Shown here: one piece after another, positions 21,595-37,187 of the stretch
Position numbering within the stretch: the first letter of the stretch is position 1
How the letters are laid out: each line of letters starts with the position of its first letter
Source: a bacterium
Lineage (GTDB): Bacteria > Zhuqueibacterota > Zhuqueibacteria > Oceanimicrobiales > Oceanimicrobiaceae
NCBI GenBank assembly: GCA_037446635.1
Contig: JBBIIG010000035.1
Span: 5,297 to 42,483, forward strand
Length of the DNA stretch: 37,187 bases
Direction of reading: 5' to 3'
Notes under the pieces: generated by a model
Seen by the model: the letters and a program-made list of their open reading frames with translations, nothing else
The model's database searches: none
Told to the model about the DNA's origin: nothing
Translations under genes and position numbers: made by a program

Positions 21595-21922
21595 TTTGGA
21601 GGGCGCGAGCCATGCTCGCGCCCAGCTGAAGCAAGGGCTTCAGCAATTTGGACTGCACGAGCCCTGCTTGCGCCTTTGGTTTTTGCACAAACTGGCTGCG
21701 CCGTGCAAGGCTGAAGCAAGGCTTCAGCAGTCCAAAATTTTTGGAGTGCACGAGCCCTGCTTGCGCCTTTGGTTTTTGCACAAACTGGCTGCGCCGTGCA
21801 AGGCTGAAGCAAGGCTTCAGCAGTCCAAAATTTTTGGACTGCACGAGCCCTGCTTGCGCCTTTGGTTTTTGCACAAACTCGCTGCGCCGTGCAGGGCTGA
21901 AGCAAGGCTTCAGCAGTCCAAA
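21595..21922. repeat. REP-doublet (REPIN/BIME-like) tandem array: one short doublet plus 3 x 93 bp
   Basis: Near-identical units start at 21647, 21740 and 21833; each has 10-bp inverted ends and hairpins GCACGAGC-CCT-GCTTGCGC and GCTGAAGC-AAG-GCTTCAGC. Confidence 0.92.
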
Positions 21923-25360: not shown

Positions 25361-25411
25361 TTCAACTTCAAATAGCTGGGGACGACTTTGCTTCGTTTCC
25401 TAAACGGAATC

Positions 25412-25562
25412 GTAATGATGGTAGAGGAGTAATGGTGTGCTGGATCGATGGATCATCAGTAATTGAATAATCTCCAATTTTTGCTCCAATACTCCAATAC
25501 TCCAATACTCCAATACTCCAATACTCCACTCCATTACTCCTCTGCTCGCTGCCATTACTCCA
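25412..25562. repeat. Octamer tandem repeat (CTCCAATA)x5 with degenerate inverted partner arm
   Basis: Five exact units at 25484-25523, then CCATTACTCC variants; the left arm contains GGAGTAATGG (reverse complement). Confidence 0.85.
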
Positions 25563-31284: not shown

Positions 31285-31689
31285 ATGAAAAAGATTCACG
31301 TCAATGGCAAGCTCTGTATCGGCCCAAATTTTTCTGCCGCCGAATTTGCCCTCATCAAACGCAATTTGGCGAACCAAAAAGGTTTGGAAACTTTGGCCGA
31401 GCTACTGGCCGTGGCCGGCAATAGCCAGCGCCTGAAAATTCTCTATCTTTTGCACGCGCACCACGAAATGTGCGTGTGCGATCTGGCCGAAGTGCTGGAA
31501 ATGAGCGAGTCCGCGGTTTCGCAGCATCTGCGCAAACTCAAAGACAAAAACCTCGTGAAAACCCGCCGCGCCGGCCAAACCATCTTTTATTCGCTAATGA
31601 AAAATATTTTTATCTCCAACTTGGAAGACATGTTTGTTATGGATGAGACCAAAGAACATCATGCTTTTCTCATAAATGAAAGGAAATAA
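31285..31689 (+). CDS. ArsR/SmtB family metalloregulator of the mer operon
   Basis: RLKILYLL, CVCDL metal motif, SAVSQHLRKL and RRAGQTIFYSL; extra N-terminal Cys. Confidence 0.93.
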   Translation: MKKIHVNGKLCIGPNFSAAEFALIKRNLANQKGLETLAELLAVAGNSQRLKILYLLHAHHEMCVCDLAEVLEMSESAVSQHLRKLKDKNLVKTRRAGQTIFYSLMKNIFISNLEDMFVMDETKEHHAFLINERK

Positions 31690-31692
31690 ATC

Positions 31693-32025
31693 ATGCAGAA
31701 AGCCACTTTATCATCTGTCGGAAGCATCGTAGCTGCAGTAACTGCTTCGCTGTGCTGCATCGGACCGGCGGTGTTGGCGATTCTCGGCGCGAGCAGCCTC
31801 GGCGCGTTTGCTGCTTTTGAAACATATCGCCCGTTCTTCATCGGCCTCACGGTGGTTTTGCTGGGGCTGGCTTTTTATCTCACTTACCGTAAACGGGAGG
31901 TGGTGTGTGAAGACGGCAGCTGTAAAATCGAGGCCGCTGGTAAATGGAATAAAATACTGCTATGGCTGGCGGCGTTGCTCGCTTTGATATTTTTGTTTTT
32001 TCCACAAATTTTAACCCTGCTCTAA
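31693..32025 (+). CDS. merT: Mercuric ion transporter MerT
   Basis: ASLCCIGP in TM1, YRPFFIG, loop CEDGSC, 3 TMs. Confidence 0.88.
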   Translation: MQKATLSSVGSIVAAVTASLCCIGPAVLAILGASSLGAFAAFETYRPFFIGLTVVLLGLAFYLTYRKREVVCEDGSCKIEAAGKWNKILLWLAALLALIFLFFPQILTLL

Positions 32026-32045: not shown

Positions 32046-32378
32046 ATGTTCAAAAAAGTTGTGAGCATCGGGCTGGTTTTCTTTTTGGGGGCGGTTCTCC
32101 TTTTTTGCTGCGGTAAAAATAATTCCAACGAAACCCCAAAGGCGACGACTGTGAATATTCAAAAAGTGAAGTTAGACGTACAGGGGATGACCTGCACCGG
32201 CTGCGAATACGGGGTGGAAACCGCCCTGAAAAAAATTGCCGGCGTAACCAAAGCCGAAGCGGATTTTGTCAGCGGCTCCGCGGAGGTGGAATTTGATCCG
32301 CAACAGGTTACCGTGGACAAATTAGTAGAGGCAGTAAACAAAACCGGCTTCACCGCCAAAGCACCACAATTAAACTAA
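32046..32378 (+). CDS. merP: MerP-like heavy-metal-associated protein, probably a lipoprotein
   Basis: GMTCTGC HMA motif; signal peptide ending LLFCCG; directly follows merT. Confidence 0.75.
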   Translation: MFKKVVSIGLVFFLGAVLLFCCGKNNSNETPKATTVNIQKVKLDVQGMTCTGCEYGVETALKKIAGVTKAEADFVSGSAEVEFDPQQVTVDKLVEAVNKTGFTAKAPQLN

Positions 32379-32382
32379 GGAT

Positions 32383-32619
32383 ATGAAAAACATTGGGCCA
32401 TTACTTCTTGCGGCGATCATCGCGAGCATTTGTTGCGGCGGACACGTAATCATCGCTCTTTTGTCTACTCTCACCTTGAGTTGGTTTATGTCATGGCCGG
32501 GACTGGCTTTTGGCGTGATGCTTAGTTCCGTAGTTGCGGCCGTGGTATGGTACCGTAAACGCCAGACCAAAAATTGCCCATGCGACGCTGTACCAGACCA
32601 ATCAAATAATCAACCATGA
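32383..32619 (+). CDS. MerF-like two-TM mercury transport protein
   Basis: 78 aa; CC in TM1 (ASICC), second TM followed by RKRQTKNCPC, the same layout as MerF. Confidence 0.6.
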   Translation: MKNIGPLLLAAIIASICCGGHVIIALLSTLTLSWFMSWPGLAFGVMLSSVVAAVVWYRKRQTKNCPCDAVPDQSNNQP

Positions 32620-32794: not shown

Positions 32795-33286
32795 ATGATG
32801 AAAAAATTTATTTCATCCAGGGGAATTTTGTCTCTGATTGCCGCAATCTTGGTGGCTTTTTTTAGTGTGCTTTCCTATGCTCAAGAGAAGACAGGCATAC
32901 CAGAGCGGATTGACAAGGTATCTACCAAAGATTTTGACGCCACCTTTAAAGCCATCGAAAAAACCCTCAAGGCAAAAGGTTTTATGATTGTCGCAACCGT
33001 TGACCATCAAAATATGCTGACAATGGTTGGCATCAAAATCAAAGGTTCAAAGACCATCGAATTCGGTAAGCCGGATATGGGCAAGATGCTGTTACCCATG
33101 GCGCCGGAAGTTGGACTCGAGATGCCGGGTCGTTTTTACATTTGGGAGCGTGGCGACGGCAAAACCGTGGTCAGCTACTACCGACCGTCTGTGGGTTTCA
33201 GCAAGTATGGCAACGAGATGATCGCAAAGATGGGTGCTGATATGGACGGCATGTGGAGCATGATCGTGGACGAAGCCCTTAAGTAA
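32795..33286 (+). CDS. Exported DUF302 family protein, Met-rich
   Basis: Signal peptide; GFMIVATVDH, IEFGKP, VGLEMPGRFYIWE and SYYRP motifs; SD AAGGAG before ATG 32795. Confidence 0.85.
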   Translation: MMKKFISSRGILSLIAAILVAFFSVLSYAQEKTGIPERIDKVSTKDFDATFKAIEKTLKAKGFMIVATVDHQNMLTMVGIKIKGSKTIEFGKPDMGKMLLPMAPEVGLEMPGRFYIWERGDGKTVVSYYRPSVGFSKYGNEMIAKMGADMDGMWSMIVDEALK

Positions 33287-33303
33287 CCATTGCGCTCAAT
33301 GGT

Positions 33304-33370
33304 CTCATGGTGCATCTCTGATTTCAGGCGCATCTGATCATGATTTGGTGCATACGAGATGCACCCTGAG
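33304..33370. other. Long intergenic stem-loop
   Basis: CTCATGGTGCATCTC / GAGATGCACCCTGAG (14 of 15 pairs) with an inner GCATC/GGTGC stem. Confidence 0.5.
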
Positions 33371-33398
33371 CAACTTGCAAACCAGAGGAGAATGAGAG

Positions 33399-34205
33399 AT
33401 GCTTATTACCATAATAGACATTCTTTTTGTCCTCGCCGGGCTTGCAGGTATTACCGTGGGATTTCTCCGCCAAAAAAGCGTCCCTCCAATTTCCCCGGTA
33501 CCGGTAAGCTCGACAAAGGAGATAATTCTCACCGCTCTGGCATTGATTCCAGCAGCGGTGGGTCCAAACATTCTGGTGGTTGCTCTGACCCCAGGCATGC
33601 CAGCGATGCCGGCTCTTACGCAGTATCTGCTCCTGCCTTCCATCGCACTCTTAATTATAGTTTCAGAAGTTGCACACCGTTTGCGGCTCGAGCGGCTAAC
33701 CAATCGAATTTGGACCGGCGTCTGGGTGGGCGCCGTCTCAACCGCCGCCTTGGATGTGATTCGCCTTACCGGCTTTTCACTTGGTTGGATGCCGGGCAAC
33801 ATGCCAAGAATGTTTGGGGTGCTGATTCTGGACCGGATGGCATTAGGTCCATCCCACCTTTCTGACATTATCGGGGGACTGTATCACTATTGGGTTAGCG
33901 CCTGTTTTGGTTTGACCTATACCCTGCTAATCGGACGAACGCGATGGTGGGGAGGTCTCATTTGGGCCCTCATCATTGAAGTGGGAATGATGACTACCCC
34001 CCCGATGGTGGTTGCCATGGACACCGGATATTTTGGAGTGAAGTTCGGCTTTGGATTGCTGGGGGTGAGCTTGACTGCCCATATTGTTTATGGTCTCGTG
34101 CTCGGATGGTTACTTGAGCGCTACACAAGGCATCACGGGGGGATAGTACCACTGGTAAAAGAAACTTTGAAAGCTACTTACATTTTAAAAACAGCAAAGG
34201 AGTAA
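33399..34205 (+). CDS. Hypothetical multi-pass membrane protein with Met/His motifs
   Basis: About 7 TMs; WMPGNMPRMFG, YHYW, MMTTPPMVVAM and AHIVYG; SD GAGGAG; stop in frame with merA. Confidence 0.8.
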   Translation: MLITIIDILFVLAGLAGITVGFLRQKSVPPISPVPVSSTKEIILTALALIPAAVGPNILVVALTPGMPAMPALTQYLLLPSIALLIIVSEVAHRLRLERLTNRIWTGVWVGAVSTAALDVIRLTGFSLGWMPGNMPRMFGVLILDRMALGPSHLSDIIGGLYHYWVSACFGLTYTLLIGRTRWWGGLIWALIIEVGMMTTPPMVVAMDTGYFGVKFGFGLLGVSLTAHIVYGLVLGWLLERYTRHHGGIVPLVKETLKATYILKTAKE

Positions 34206-34217
34206 TATATTGACGGG

Positions 34218-35843
34218 ATGACCTGTTTGACCTGTGCTCGCCATGTCACGGAAGCCCTCGCAAAAACAAAAGGTGTGAAGGACGTGGAGATGGGCGATTG
34301 GCACGCTGGCCAGGCCCTCGTGTATGCCGAACCCACTGTGGACAATCAAGTCCTTATCAAAGCCGTGAAAAACGCCGGCTACCGAGCGACTATCTTAGAA
34401 CGACAGGGTTTGGAACGAGAACTGAAAACGCACCAAAGCGATGGCCATGAATTTGATCTCATGATCGTTGGCGGCGGCTCCGCGGCGTTTGCCGCCGCCA
34501 TCAAAGCCAGCGAGCTTGGGGCCAAAGTTGCGATTATTGAATCCGGCACCATTGGCGGCACCTGTGTCAATGTTGGCTGCGTGCCTTCCAAAACCTTGAT
34601 TCGGGCGGCGGAGCAGTGCTTTAAACGATCCTCGCACAATTTCAACGGCTCGACCGCCTGCGCTCCGCCGGAAGACTGGCCGCAAATCATTCAGATGAAA
34701 GATGAACTGGTGGCCGAACTGCGGCAGGAAAAATATATCAATGTCGCCAAAGCTTATCCTAACATTTCCATCCTTCAAGGGGAAGCCCAATTTCGAGATG
34801 GGCAGAGTCTGGCCATCGATGGTAGAACTTATACCCCGGGCAAAATCCTCATTGCTACCGGTTCCCATCCGTGGGCGCCACCGATTCGAGGCTTGCAGGA
34901 AAATGGCTTCCTCGATAGCACGGCAGCTTTGAGCCTTTCGACATTACCGAAAACCATGACCGTCATCGGGGCCGGCTCCATCGGCCTGGAACTGGCGCAA
35001 ATGTTTGCTCGCTTCGGCGTTAAAATAACTTTGTTGGAGGTTCTGCCGCGAATTGCTCCAGCGGAAGAGCCGGAAATTAGCGAAGCCTTGACTCAATACC
35101 TTCAGGAAGAAAAAATGGACGTCCATGCCGGGGTGGTGATTGAGCGGGTGGAAAAGAAAAAAGAGGGGTATCATCTGACGGTTGAGATCAATGGCAAGAC
35201 AGAACGGCTCAACTCTGAGCAATTGCTGGTGGCCACCGGCAGAAGGCCAAACACCTCCCGGCTCAATCTCTTGATCGCCGGAGTGGCGGTGGGTAAGCGT
35301 GGGGAAATTGTTGTCAATGAATATTTGCAGACCACCAATCCCAACGTTTATGCCGCGGGTGACGTCATTGGCGATCCCATGTTTGTTTACGTTACGGCCT
35401 ATGCCGGTGCCCTGGCCGCAGAAAATGCTCTCAACCAGGCTCGCAAAACGTATGACCTTTCGGCTCTTCCCCGGGTGACGTTCACGGACCCGCAGATCGC
35501 CAGCGTCGGCTTGACCGAAGCTCAGGCCCGCGAAAAAGGCTACCCGGTAAAGACCTCCATCATTTTTGCCAAAGACGTGCCGCGGGCGCTGGCCGCCCGG
35601 GATCCCCGCGGTCTGATTAAACTGGTGGTGGATGAGAAAGATGGCCGCCTTCTGGGCGCACATATTCTGGCGGCTGAAGCCGGTGATGTGATTCAGGAGG
35701 CCACACTGGCCATTCGCTTGGGTTTAACTTACAAAGACCTCGTTCAAACCTTCCATCCCTATTTGACCTGGGTGGAAGGAATTAAACTCGCGGCCATTAC
35801 CATCGAGAAAGATGTGCACCAGCTTTCCTGTTGTGCGGCGTAG
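34218..35843 (+). CDS. merA: Mercuric reductase MerA with N-terminally clipped NmerA domain
   Basis: MTCLTC, GGGSAA FAD motif, redox-active GGTCVNVGCVPSK, EKY and HPYLT tyrosines, C-terminal LSCCAA. Confidence 0.95.
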   Translation: MTCLTCARHVTEALAKTKGVKDVEMGDWHAGQALVYAEPTVDNQVLIKAVKNAGYRATILERQGLERELKTHQSDGHEFDLMIVGGGSAAFAAAIKASELGAKVAIIESGTIGGTCVNVGCVPSKTLIRAAEQCFKRSSHNFNGSTACAPPEDWPQIIQMKDELVAELRQEKYINVAKAYPNISILQGEAQFRDGQSLAIDGRTYTPGKILIATGSHPWAPPIRGLQENGFLDSTAALSLSTLPKTMTVIGAGSIGLELAQMFARFGVKITLLEVLPRIAPAEEPEISEALTQYLQEEKMDVHAGVVIERVEKKKEGYHLTVEINGKTERLNSEQLLVATGRRPNTSRLNLLIAGVAVGKRGEIVVNEYLQTTNPNVYAAGDVIGDPMFVYVTAYAGALAAENALNQARKTYDLSALPRVTFTDPQIASVGLTEAQAREKGYPVKTSIIFAKDVPRALAARDPRGLIKLVVDEKDGRLLGAHILAAEAGDVIQEATLAIRLGLTYKDLVQTFHPYLTWVEGIKLAAITIEKDVHQLSCCAA

Positions 35844-36018
35844 TTCTGCGATGCCTTCGACCCGCTGGCCGATAAGCTCACCTACAAATGGCAGGTCAAC
35901 CTGGGAGATTCCGGTCTATCGAAACCTGAAAGGCACGCAGCTCTCCCTAACGAACAGCGTGGGCGTGGACCTGCAGGTGGCGTTTAACTTTCGAGGGGTT
36001 CCAAAACTGACTCTATAA
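35844..36018 (+). pseudogene. Possible frameshifted 3' relic of an outer-membrane beta-barrel gene
   Basis: KLTYKWQVNL, then one extra G at about 35904, then EIPVYRNLKGTQLSLTNSVGVDLQVAFNF; two amphipathic strands; no start or SD. Confidence 0.35.
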
Positions 36019-36066
36019 ATTAAGAGTCTTCTTTTGAAATTCTTACTTAATACATAGGAGATTGTT

Positions 36067-36309
36067 ATGGCCTTTCCAAAAGTAATCATTTACACCCAGA
36101 CGGATTGACTGTTTTGCAACTACGCGAAAGAGTTTCTTTCGGAGAATCGGGTGCCTTATATCGAAAAGAATATTACCAAAGACGAAGCCGCTTTTAAAGA
36201 GCTGACCGAAGACTTGGGTATCATGTCTACCCCGGTTATAAAAATAAATGAGGAGATTATAACGGGTTTTAATCAAACAAAATTGCGCAAGCTGTTGGGA
36301 TTAAAATGA
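36067..36309 (+). CDS. Glutaredoxin/NrdH-like selenoprotein (UxxC), 80 aa
   Basis: SD AGGAG; MAFPKVIIYTQTD-U(TGA 36106-36108)-LFCNYAKEFLSENRVPYIEKNITKDEAAFKELTEDLGIMSTPVIKINEEIITGFNQTKLRKLLGLK*. The Grx fold (cis-Pro STP, GF) continues past the TGA. Confidence 0.85.
36125..36141 (+). promoter_or_regulatory. Candidate bacterial SECIS hairpin
   Basis: CGAAAGA-GTT-TCTTTCG; the apical loop starts with GU at position +24 after the UGA. Confidence 0.6.
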
Positions 36310-36352: not shown

Positions 36353-37187
36353 ATGAACTATCTAAGCATACTTTTACTTTTTCTATTTTTGAATACGGCA
36401 TCTGGTCAAACCATCCCTGTTGGCAAAGGCCCGGATGCTCTTTTCTTAACGCCAAACGAACAGTATCTTTACGTCGCCAACGTCGAAGACACCTTCATCA
36501 GCGTCATCGATACTCGCACGGATAAGGTGGTGCAAACCATCGATGGCGTGGATTATCCCTGGGGCTTCACCCGCCTGGGCGAGACGAATTTAGTGGCGGT
36601 CAGCGGTTGGGACAAAGGCGTCGATGTCATTGATTTCACCACTCATAAAATTGTGCGATCCAAACGCTACGAGCACAATTTAGGCGGCATCACCTCGACC
36701 AAAGATGGGAAGACCCTGTTCGTGGTTGCTACGGATGCCAACAAAGTTCTGAAAATTGACGCCAGCACGCTGGAAATTTTGTCGGAGTACCAAACCGGCA
36801 GCGGCCCGGATGGGATTGGCATTTCCAAAGACCAGACCAAAATTTATGTCACGAACACCAAAGACGGCAGCATTTCCGTCATAAATCTGGCCACGAAAAA
36901 AGCCACTGTCATTAAAACCGGCGGCAAGCCGGAACTCATTCACGGCACGCCCGACCATTCTCTGCTCTTTATTAGCAATTTCAATGACAACAAAATCCAC
37001 ATCCTCGATACCCAAACCGACAAGATCATTCATGAAATCACCGGGCTGGATGGTCCGGAAGAAGCGGTGCTGTCCAAATCCGGGGAGACGCTGTTTGTGG
37101 TGAATTTCAATTCTGCAAAAGTGTTCCGTTACGATGCCAAGAGCTACAAGAAGCGGCCTGAGGAATTCGCCGTCGGCAGCAAGCCCA
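36353..37187 (+). CDS. Exported YVTN/YncE-type beta-propeller protein (3'-truncated by the window)
   Basis: SD GGAG; MNYLSILLLFLFLNTASG signal, then IPVGKGPD...YLYVAN...ISVID and GSGPDG...IYVTN...GSISVIN repeats; open to the window end. Confidence 0.9.
   Translation, partial: MNYLSILLLFLFLNTASGQTIPVGKGPDALFLTPNEQYLYVANVEDTFISVIDTRTDKVVQTIDGVDYPWGFTRLGETNLVAVSGWDKGVDVIDFTTHKIVRSKRYEHNLGGITSTKDGKTLFVVATDANKVLKIDASTLEILSEYQTGSGPDGIGISKDQTKIYVTNTKDGSISVINLATKKATVIKTGGKPELIHGTPDHSLLFISNFNDNKIHILDTQTDKIIHEITGLDGPEEAVLSKSGETLFVVNFNSAKVFRYDAKSYKKRPEEFAVGSKP

Follow-up and report, generated by a model that had tools for sequence, protein, structure and literature searches.

A predicted selenocysteine glutaredoxin gene inside an otherwise cysteine-based mer cluster of a Zhuqueibacterota genome

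Results

The window analysed here, a stretch of 37,187 nt from a Zhuqueibacterota genome (G000; contig JBBIIG010000035.1, hereafter C35), holds near its 3′ end a small glutaredoxin gene whose in-frame TGA is, judging from comparative sequence evidence, very likely read as selenocysteine (Sec). We regard it as almost certain that this gene encodes a real selenoprotein. Very likely it adds a new member, annotated wrongly so far, to a selenoprotein family already known, and the unusual part is its arrangement inside a mercury resistance (mer) cluster that is otherwise Cys-based.

A glutaredoxin gene with an in-frame TGA

The gene and the elements discussed with it are the following.

36067..36309, + strand: predicted Sec-glutaredoxin gene, 80 codons, glutaredoxin fold, U14-L-F-C17 motif and T55-P56 loop
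36056..36060, + strand: Shine-Dalgarno sequence AGGAG, 6 nt 5′ of the ATG, read in the sequence
36106..36108, + strand: in-frame TGA, predicted Sec codon (codon 14), aligned with the first Cys of CxxC
36125..36141, + strand: predicted bacterial SECIS, CGAAAGA-GTT-TCTTTCG, 7-bp stem, GUU loop, loop G at +24

An earlier note on this DNA had described a good Shine-Dalgarno sequence and ATG, a TGA at the first Cys position of a glutaredoxin with 66 intact codons behind it, and the absence of the gene from the ORF list. Each of these is found: AGGAG precedes the ATG at 36067, translation and alignment to 7C10 place codon 14 (context T-D-U-L-F-C) at that Cys with 66 sense codons running up to the closing TGA stop at 36307-36309, and ORF calling under table 11 returns only a 52-aa fragment with a GTG start (36151-36309).

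The read-through product scores above the cut-off of the Pfam Glutaredoxin family (PF00462, 50.8 vs 22.9 bits), with UxxC present, and misses every NCBIfam cut-off. The top and nearest NCBIfam model is YruB (TIGR02196, 78.2 bits vs 88.55); scores are 51.2 vs 85.75 for the NrdH model TIGR02194 and 47.7 vs 66 (NF041212), 35.7 vs 100 (NF041211) and 20.9 vs 72 (NF041114) for the UXX-star selenoprotein models. The best PDB match is 7C10, "Glutaredoxin" (E 1.2e-19, residues 5-79), which we take to be cGrx1 of Clostridium oremlandii, and U14 aligns with the first Cys of its CxxC. An AlphaFold single-sequence model has a thioredoxin-like order of elements at pLDDT 60 and was set aside as evidence.

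Probable reading of the TGA as selenocysteine

A lack of Sec machinery would, in the terms of the earlier note, have pointed to a nonsense pseudogene. The machinery is complete: selA, selB and selD score above cut-off and tRNA-Sec (selC) was found in G000, which is 97% complete, and selD carries one in-frame TGA of its own. A Cys-inserting or Trp reading of the TGA was also considered; tRNA-Sec is the only tRNA with a TCA anticodon found in the genome. Three more likely selenoproteins with G-containing hairpins were seen in G000, at C59:2374(-), presumably a SelW/Rdx-like CxxU protein, at C11:90418(-), which we take to be an AhpD-like CxxU protein, and at C91:10374(+), by our reading an ABC substrate-binding protein with LPVT-U-HLTC.

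Alignment of homologues, a check proposed along with the original claim, places TGA at the same column in many of them and Cys in others. Among the 12 close database relatives listed, which include the window's own fragment, P0002 has W at the TGA column and the rest begin 3′ of it, a pattern that the TGA accounts for in all 12; W also occurs there in two further cluster members. We infer that the W is a product of the genetic codes applied by gene callers. The closest relative at the DNA level (L041, 73% identical) has TGA in its DNA at the equivalent column. Compared with L041, the stretch 3′ of the TGA gives dN 0.18 and dS 1.49 (dN/dS about 0.12), by which measure it is under purifying selection.

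A SECIS-type hairpin that recurs in the TGA forms

The hairpin with a GU-starting loop at +24 that had been noticed by eye is found at 36125-36141. Published rules for the bacterial SECIS give a loop of 3-9 nt, a stem of 4-16 bp, G first in the loop and 16-37 nt from the UGA (PMC13188914, PMC9312934); the predicted element has a 3-nt loop, 7 bp and 23 nt from the UGA, and its energy when folded alone (-6.6 kcal/mol, z -1.24) falls short of the energy rule of -7.5 kcal/mol and is unremarkable by itself. A competing hairpin over the UGA is stronger, at about -10.5 kcal/mol.

The comparison among homologues is more telling. Under a fixed-position rule (G at the +24 loop position and at least 6 of 7 pairs) the hairpin is scored in 25 of 34 distinct TGA forms (counting the one in the window) vs one of 49 Cys forms, on a background of 730 of the 158,782 TGA triplets in the genome. 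A flexible rule at -4 kcal/mol accepts 33/34 TGA forms, 7/49 Cys forms and 24% of 1,500 random TGA triplets. In an independent Planctomycetota set the hairpin is present in 13/18 TGA forms vs 0/25 Cys forms; the homologues behind all these counts are related, so that the trials are non-independent, and the contrast is large. In five of eight pairs both partners change, and 0/500 shuffles reach the covariation score, which is equally high when the register is slid by -1 because some homologues use a 4-nt-loop register. By this comparison of homologues, the hairpin is more than a chance feature. Taken with the complete set of selA, selB, selC and selD, the TGA homologues and the purifying selection, its contrast between TGA and Cys forms gives strong support to the recoding originally proposed.

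Position in the mer cluster

The genes and elements around the glutaredoxin are listed below.

31285..31689, + strand: ArsR/SmtB-family regulator, first gene of the cluster (profile matches)
31693..32025, + strand: merT-family transporter (PF02411, 71.1 vs 32.9)
32046..32378, + strand: MerP-like HMA protein with CxxC (PF00403)
32383..32619, + strand: small membrane protein with a CC pair, weakly MerT-like (below cut-off)
32795..33286, + strand: DUF302 protein (Pfam match)
33399..34205, + strand: DUF6789 membrane protein (Pfam match)
34218..35843, + strand: merA, Cys-based (TIGR02053, 562.5 vs cut-off 454.45), with N-terminal CxxC, CVNVGC redox centre and C-terminal CC
35847..36018, + strand: deletion remnant, part of a PKD-domain lipoprotein gene joined to the 3′ end of a putative outer-membrane barrel gene
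36002..36036 (core 36009-36028), + strand: predicted terminator-like hairpin (consensus match; -9.5 kcal/mol, z -3.27, 2/200 shuffles)
36353..37187, + strand: YncE-like beta-propeller gene, cut by the contig end and running on in contig C14
348-3872 of C14 (L140 of G000): second half of the metal cluster, with merB, CsoR/RicR-like, tandem HMA, putative barrel and NHL-repeat-like genes

All genes from arsR through yncE lie on one strand. The 223 nt between merA and the glutaredoxin gene hold the deletion remnant and the terminator-like hairpin, and a 43-nt gap separates the glutaredoxin from yncE. The two halves of the remnant are 47% and 63% identical to genes of L113, and both source genes are whole in the mer cluster of a family relative (G014); the "outer-membrane barrel" label of the 3′ part is our own putative reading, as no library family matches. 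No consensus promoter was found directly 5′ of the glutaredoxin gene, which has the lowest GC of the cluster (0.39 vs 0.46-0.55). One MerR query against the genome gave no match at 1e-5, and ArsR heads the cluster. The mer proteins of the cluster (MerA, MerB, MerT, HMA) are all Cys forms, and Sec is predicted in the glutaredoxin only.

The yncE gene allows the cluster to be followed past the contig end. An intact homologue aligns through its residues 40-297 with the end of C35 and through residues 298-412 with the beginning of C14, at an overlap of 2 nt, and merB (NF009710, 208.7 vs cut-off 193) begins 10 nt after the yncE stop; downstream of it C14 encodes a CsoR/RicR-like repressor (below cut-off), a tandem HMA protein, a putative barrel and an NHL-repeat-like protein. 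Because yncE continues onto C14 and merB comes next, the glutaredoxin gene very probably lies between merA and merB, a junction made by gene continuity, with no bridging read. In sequencing run X3, from a related organism, one contig spans 35906-37187, showing 138 differences and 5 gaps that are all listed as lying outside the glutaredoxin frame; arsR to merA are covered there by other contigs of similar depth, and no single record joins merA to the glutaredoxin. Runs X1 and X2 appear to be duplicate deposits of a single data set.

Other features of the window may be recorded here. A stop lies five codons 5′ of the merA ATG (window 34198-34220), so that the N-terminal HMA domain has apparently lost its first strand and kept the CxxC; run X3 differs at this place. 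DUF302 and DUF6789 genes are paired in seven of nine relatives with DUF6789 (window 32795-34205; 8 loci examined: L113, L126, L134-L139) and adjoin merA in two. Short tandem repeats at about 21650-21870 and 25400-25520 are visible as repetitive ORF translations.

Distribution in the phylum and beyond

MerA occurs in 22 of 167 genomes of the phylum, and G000 has the only TGA glutaredoxin form among these 167. None of the 23 merA places outside G000, several of them on short contigs, carries this glutaredoxin; one has an unrelated Cys thioredoxin-domain gene and another a broken copy of it. As selA is present in all five merA-bearing family relatives, missing Sec does not explain the absence. 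Linkage to merA, the subject of another check proposed in the earlier note, comes out two ways: in the window it is physically tighter than had been stated, with the gene in the merA-merB interior, and it is not conserved across genomes. Going by these loci, the glutaredoxin is an optional accessory and not a conserved mer component.

Gene order in the mer clusters of the phylum is shuffled and decaying. The types of gene that neighbour the glutaredoxin (propeller, barrel) also adjoin merA in L113, L117, L128 and L129. The YncE-like propeller beside merA thereby recurs in the phylum; in two such loci it is accompanied by a putative barrel protein with GCC at its start, for which neither Pfam nor NCBIfam has a matching family. 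Propeller and barrel form an uncharacterised envelope module of these mer clusters. In L128 and L129 merA lacks the N-terminal HMA domain, and next to it come a gene with an adenylate/guanylate cyclase domain and then yncE.

Among loci from other sources, the 4.2-kb contig of L041 has no mer gene, no true merA was found near the metagenome glutaredoxins (70 loci), and mer-type neighbours within 3 kb were found at 0 of 39 metagenome Sec loci, 24 of them with short flanks. Candidates for "merA" beside Sec-glutaredoxins in L043, L044, L048 and L176 are flavoproteins 31-36% identical and without the C-terminal CC, and for that reason were not counted as MerA. In L043, L044 and L048 the U-L-F-C glutaredoxin follows this MerA-like flavoprotein disulfide reductase, possibly a dedicated reductase. 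Viral contigs gave 20 loci, of which the 18 scored are all Cys forms without mer neighbours; plasmids gave 10 distant matches. The sole locus from the genome-contig scan (L016) proved to be a chance 14-residue match inside a sulfatase-like gene.

A search of 401 Planctomycetota-centred genomes returned 52 places, 18 with TGA; our examination covered every place with TGA and 25 of the 34 others. Metal-module neighbours accompany 4/18 Sec forms vs 0/25 Cys forms (Fisher p 0.025, a value overstated by kinship). The best-scoring match, L161, combines a barrel, a double UxxU HMA protein, the Sec-glutaredoxin and YHS; L163 and L166 have a UxxU HMA protein, the Sec-glutaredoxin and a zinc-ribbon-like selenoprotein; L176 has CsoR-like, Sec-glutaredoxin, zinc ribbon, MerT-HMA and UxxU HMA genes. 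Part of the input to the neighbour models came from L161, L166 and L176; L163 is an independent find, and outside queries match L161 and L176 as well. MerA above cut-off is absent in all four genomes with such modules. These MerA-less, Sec-rich modules (L176 4300-6400, L166 1-1200, L163, L161 8400-11500) contain UxxU HMA-thioredoxin fusions and, right 3′ of the Sec-glutaredoxin, a small CxxU zinc-ribbon-like protein. In L162 and L165 we saw three-gene tandem glutaredoxin arrays with one Sec and two Cys forms.

On a tree built solely by a quick method, from 80 columns and with 44 of its 108 forks left open, the window's glutaredoxin groups with L041 and the database relatives (support 96-98) and L161 joins only a loose 15-row group. 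The metal-neighbour label needs 4 changes on this tree, so the metal-linked copies are not established as one lineage.

Possible function

We think it reasonably probable that the glutaredoxin is functionally part of the metal response. The favoured reading of its role, held tentatively and at a little under an even chance, is by analogy that of a thiol-repair oxidoreductase in mercury stress, acting from between merA and merB. SelB would bind the +24 hairpin and insert Sec at codon 14, as machinery and conservation suggest. On the analogy of cGrx1 and of Grx1/MerA in Synechocystis, the Sec14 selenolate would then attack protein disulfides or bacillithiol mixed disulfides, with the cysteine pairs in MerA, MerB and the HMA proteins as the nearest candidate targets, and Cys17 would resolve the intermediate by the established CxxC chemistry. 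The genome has trxB, bshA, bshC and ypdA, and gshB, the one glutathione-synthesis gene searched for, gave no match in this 97% complete assembly; given this gene content, re-reduction would likely come from TrxB/NADPH or from bacillithiol/YpdA. Reduction of Hg(II) itself would be left to the Cys-based MerA and would not need the Sec-glutaredoxin. Among the three roles that had been suggested (scavenger or shuttle, and repair of Hg-thiol adducts), thiol repair has precedent and a shuttle to MerA is the weakest.

Family chemistry, the donor genes and the Synechocystis and Thermus precedents lead us to favour thiol repair over its rivals. It has to reckon with the absence of the glutaredoxin at the 23 other merA loci, with 0/39 metagenome Sec loci being mer-linked and with the significant hairpin 30 nt 5′ of the ATG, which could uncouple the gene from merA. 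These same facts would suit a Sec-glutaredoxin with a general redox job, captured into a mobile metal or stress island, with its own expression downstream of that hairpin and no specific mercury link. That general role is plausible since the gene is the only glutaredoxin of its family in G000; most Sec homologues lack metal neighbours (14/18 and 39/39), the 4.2-kb contig of L041 is without a mer gene, the low GC sets the gene apart from its cluster, and gene order in such clusters is shuffled and decaying. Against it, the gene is interior to the cluster and not at its edge, one X3 contig spans it together with yncE with no gap in its frame, metal neighbours accompany only Sec and never Cys forms in the Planctomycetota sample, and no consensus promoter precedes it. 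We consider this general role rather unlikely, and next in order after thiol repair. Selenoproteins are usually regarded as mercury targets. The binding of Hg to selenium is very tight, so that mercury could poison a Sec enzyme just when it is needed, a point against the repair role; the Haft and Gwadz preprint raises a related design objection. The same very high affinity (Haft and Gwadz preprint) would serve a cytoplasmic Hg(II) sink or carrier that uses its Sec/Cys pair to pull Hg off protein or bacillithiol thiols, or off the product of MerB, and then keeps it or hands it on to MerA, a role that fits the position between merA and merB and the metal-binding selenoproteins (UxxU HMA, CxxU zinc-ribbon-like, MerT-HMA) that are its neighbours in Planctomycetota. 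Hand-over from a selenol to the MerA cysteines would, from that affinity, be uphill, and MerA keeps its own N-terminal CxxC and C-terminal CC. Sec14 and Cys17 are the only residues with a catalytic role, an ordinary oxidoreductase signature, and a fusion to a mer protein was seen neither among the 120 matches listed of 464 longer relatives (mostly Grx-PDZ fusions) nor among 33 longer or multi-stretch representatives. We consider a sink or carrier unlikely.

Last in this order, in which every functional step stays conditional, comes a nonsense pseudogene or a sequence error. The deletion remnant directly 5′ of the gene and the weak SECIS of the window's copy would fit such a reading, but the complete Sec machinery, the same-column TGA in many homologues, the dN/dS of about 0.12 downstream of the TGA and the conservation of the SECIS among Sec forms already make it very unlikely on comparative data.

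The strongest form of a mercury role would be a dedicated, hidden resistance component whose selenolate takes Hg(II) or bacillithiol adducts off protein thiols and so restores MerA and MerB, or which feeds Hg to MerA, recruited repeatedly into classical mer operons and into MerA-less Sec-rich modules. We hold this to be possible and on balance improbable. If true, it would be a selenoprotein working in mercury resistance, a kind of which no example turned up in a 2022 survey. A Sec-glutaredoxin in a mer cluster is in any case rare and optional. Here a lone small Sec enzyme would sit between an intact merA and an intact merB, both Cys-based; this setting makes a role of Sec in mercury resistance testable, and mer-operon surveys miss such TGA-containing genes.

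Comparison with known systems

UxxC glutaredoxins are, as the earlier note had stated, an established prokaryotic selenoprotein family in published lists (PMC13188914, PMC9312934), and a Sec-glutaredoxin is also listed in PMC1976440. The closest solved relative, 7C10, is a clostridial glutaredoxin. As described for cGrx1, a native selenoprotein with a U/C-P-X-C motif, the first residue of the family motif attacks and the second resolves, and the enzyme is proposed to reduce MsrA and to be reduced by glutathione (PMC7642778). The window's protein differs in its U-L-F-C motif without proline, in a genome without a gshB match and in its mer-cluster context. In size and fold it also resembles the NrdH and YruB-type proteins (TIGR02194, TIGR02196), a group reduced by thioredoxin reductase; unlike them it misses both cut-offs, has Sec at the nucleophile and has no ribonucleotide reductase gene among its annotated neighbours.

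The Synechocystis MerA-like enzyme was reportedly found to be controlled by Grx1 by Marteyn et al. in 2013. In that system MerA activity comes back once glutaredoxin has taken off a thiol adduct, as Grx1 reactivates the glutathionylated MerA-like enzyme (PMC4360819, PMC8261052), and in contrast to the window it is Cys-based and glutathione-based. In Thermus, Hg(II) depletes bacillithiol (PMC6445937).

With a broad-spectrum mer operon the cluster shares MerA, MerB, MerT and an HMA protein, all Cys-based; it differs in being headed by ArsR and not MerR and in adding DUF302, DUF6789, the YncE-like propeller, barrel genes and the Sec-glutaredoxin. A literature search that reached mainly open-access texts brought up no description of a merA/merB operon with a Sec-glutaredoxin. 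The broader statement of the earlier note, that no mer system with a selenoprotein had been described, needs narrowing because mercury-type selenoproteins are already in print: MerT-like, UxxU metal-binding, the MerB-like SaoL and HgcA/B proteins are listed (PMC13188914, PMC9312934). For resistance itself, Haft and Gwadz report having found no selenoprotein that takes part. The printed examples (MerT-like, the MerT/CopZ fusion NF045683, UxxU NF041115, SaoL/SaoT, HgcA/B) and the gene presented here have in common Sec in place of Cys within mercury-type modules; unlike in those, the mer proteins of the window are Cys forms and the predicted Sec is confined to the glutaredoxin, beside a MerA and a MerB that both score above cut-off.
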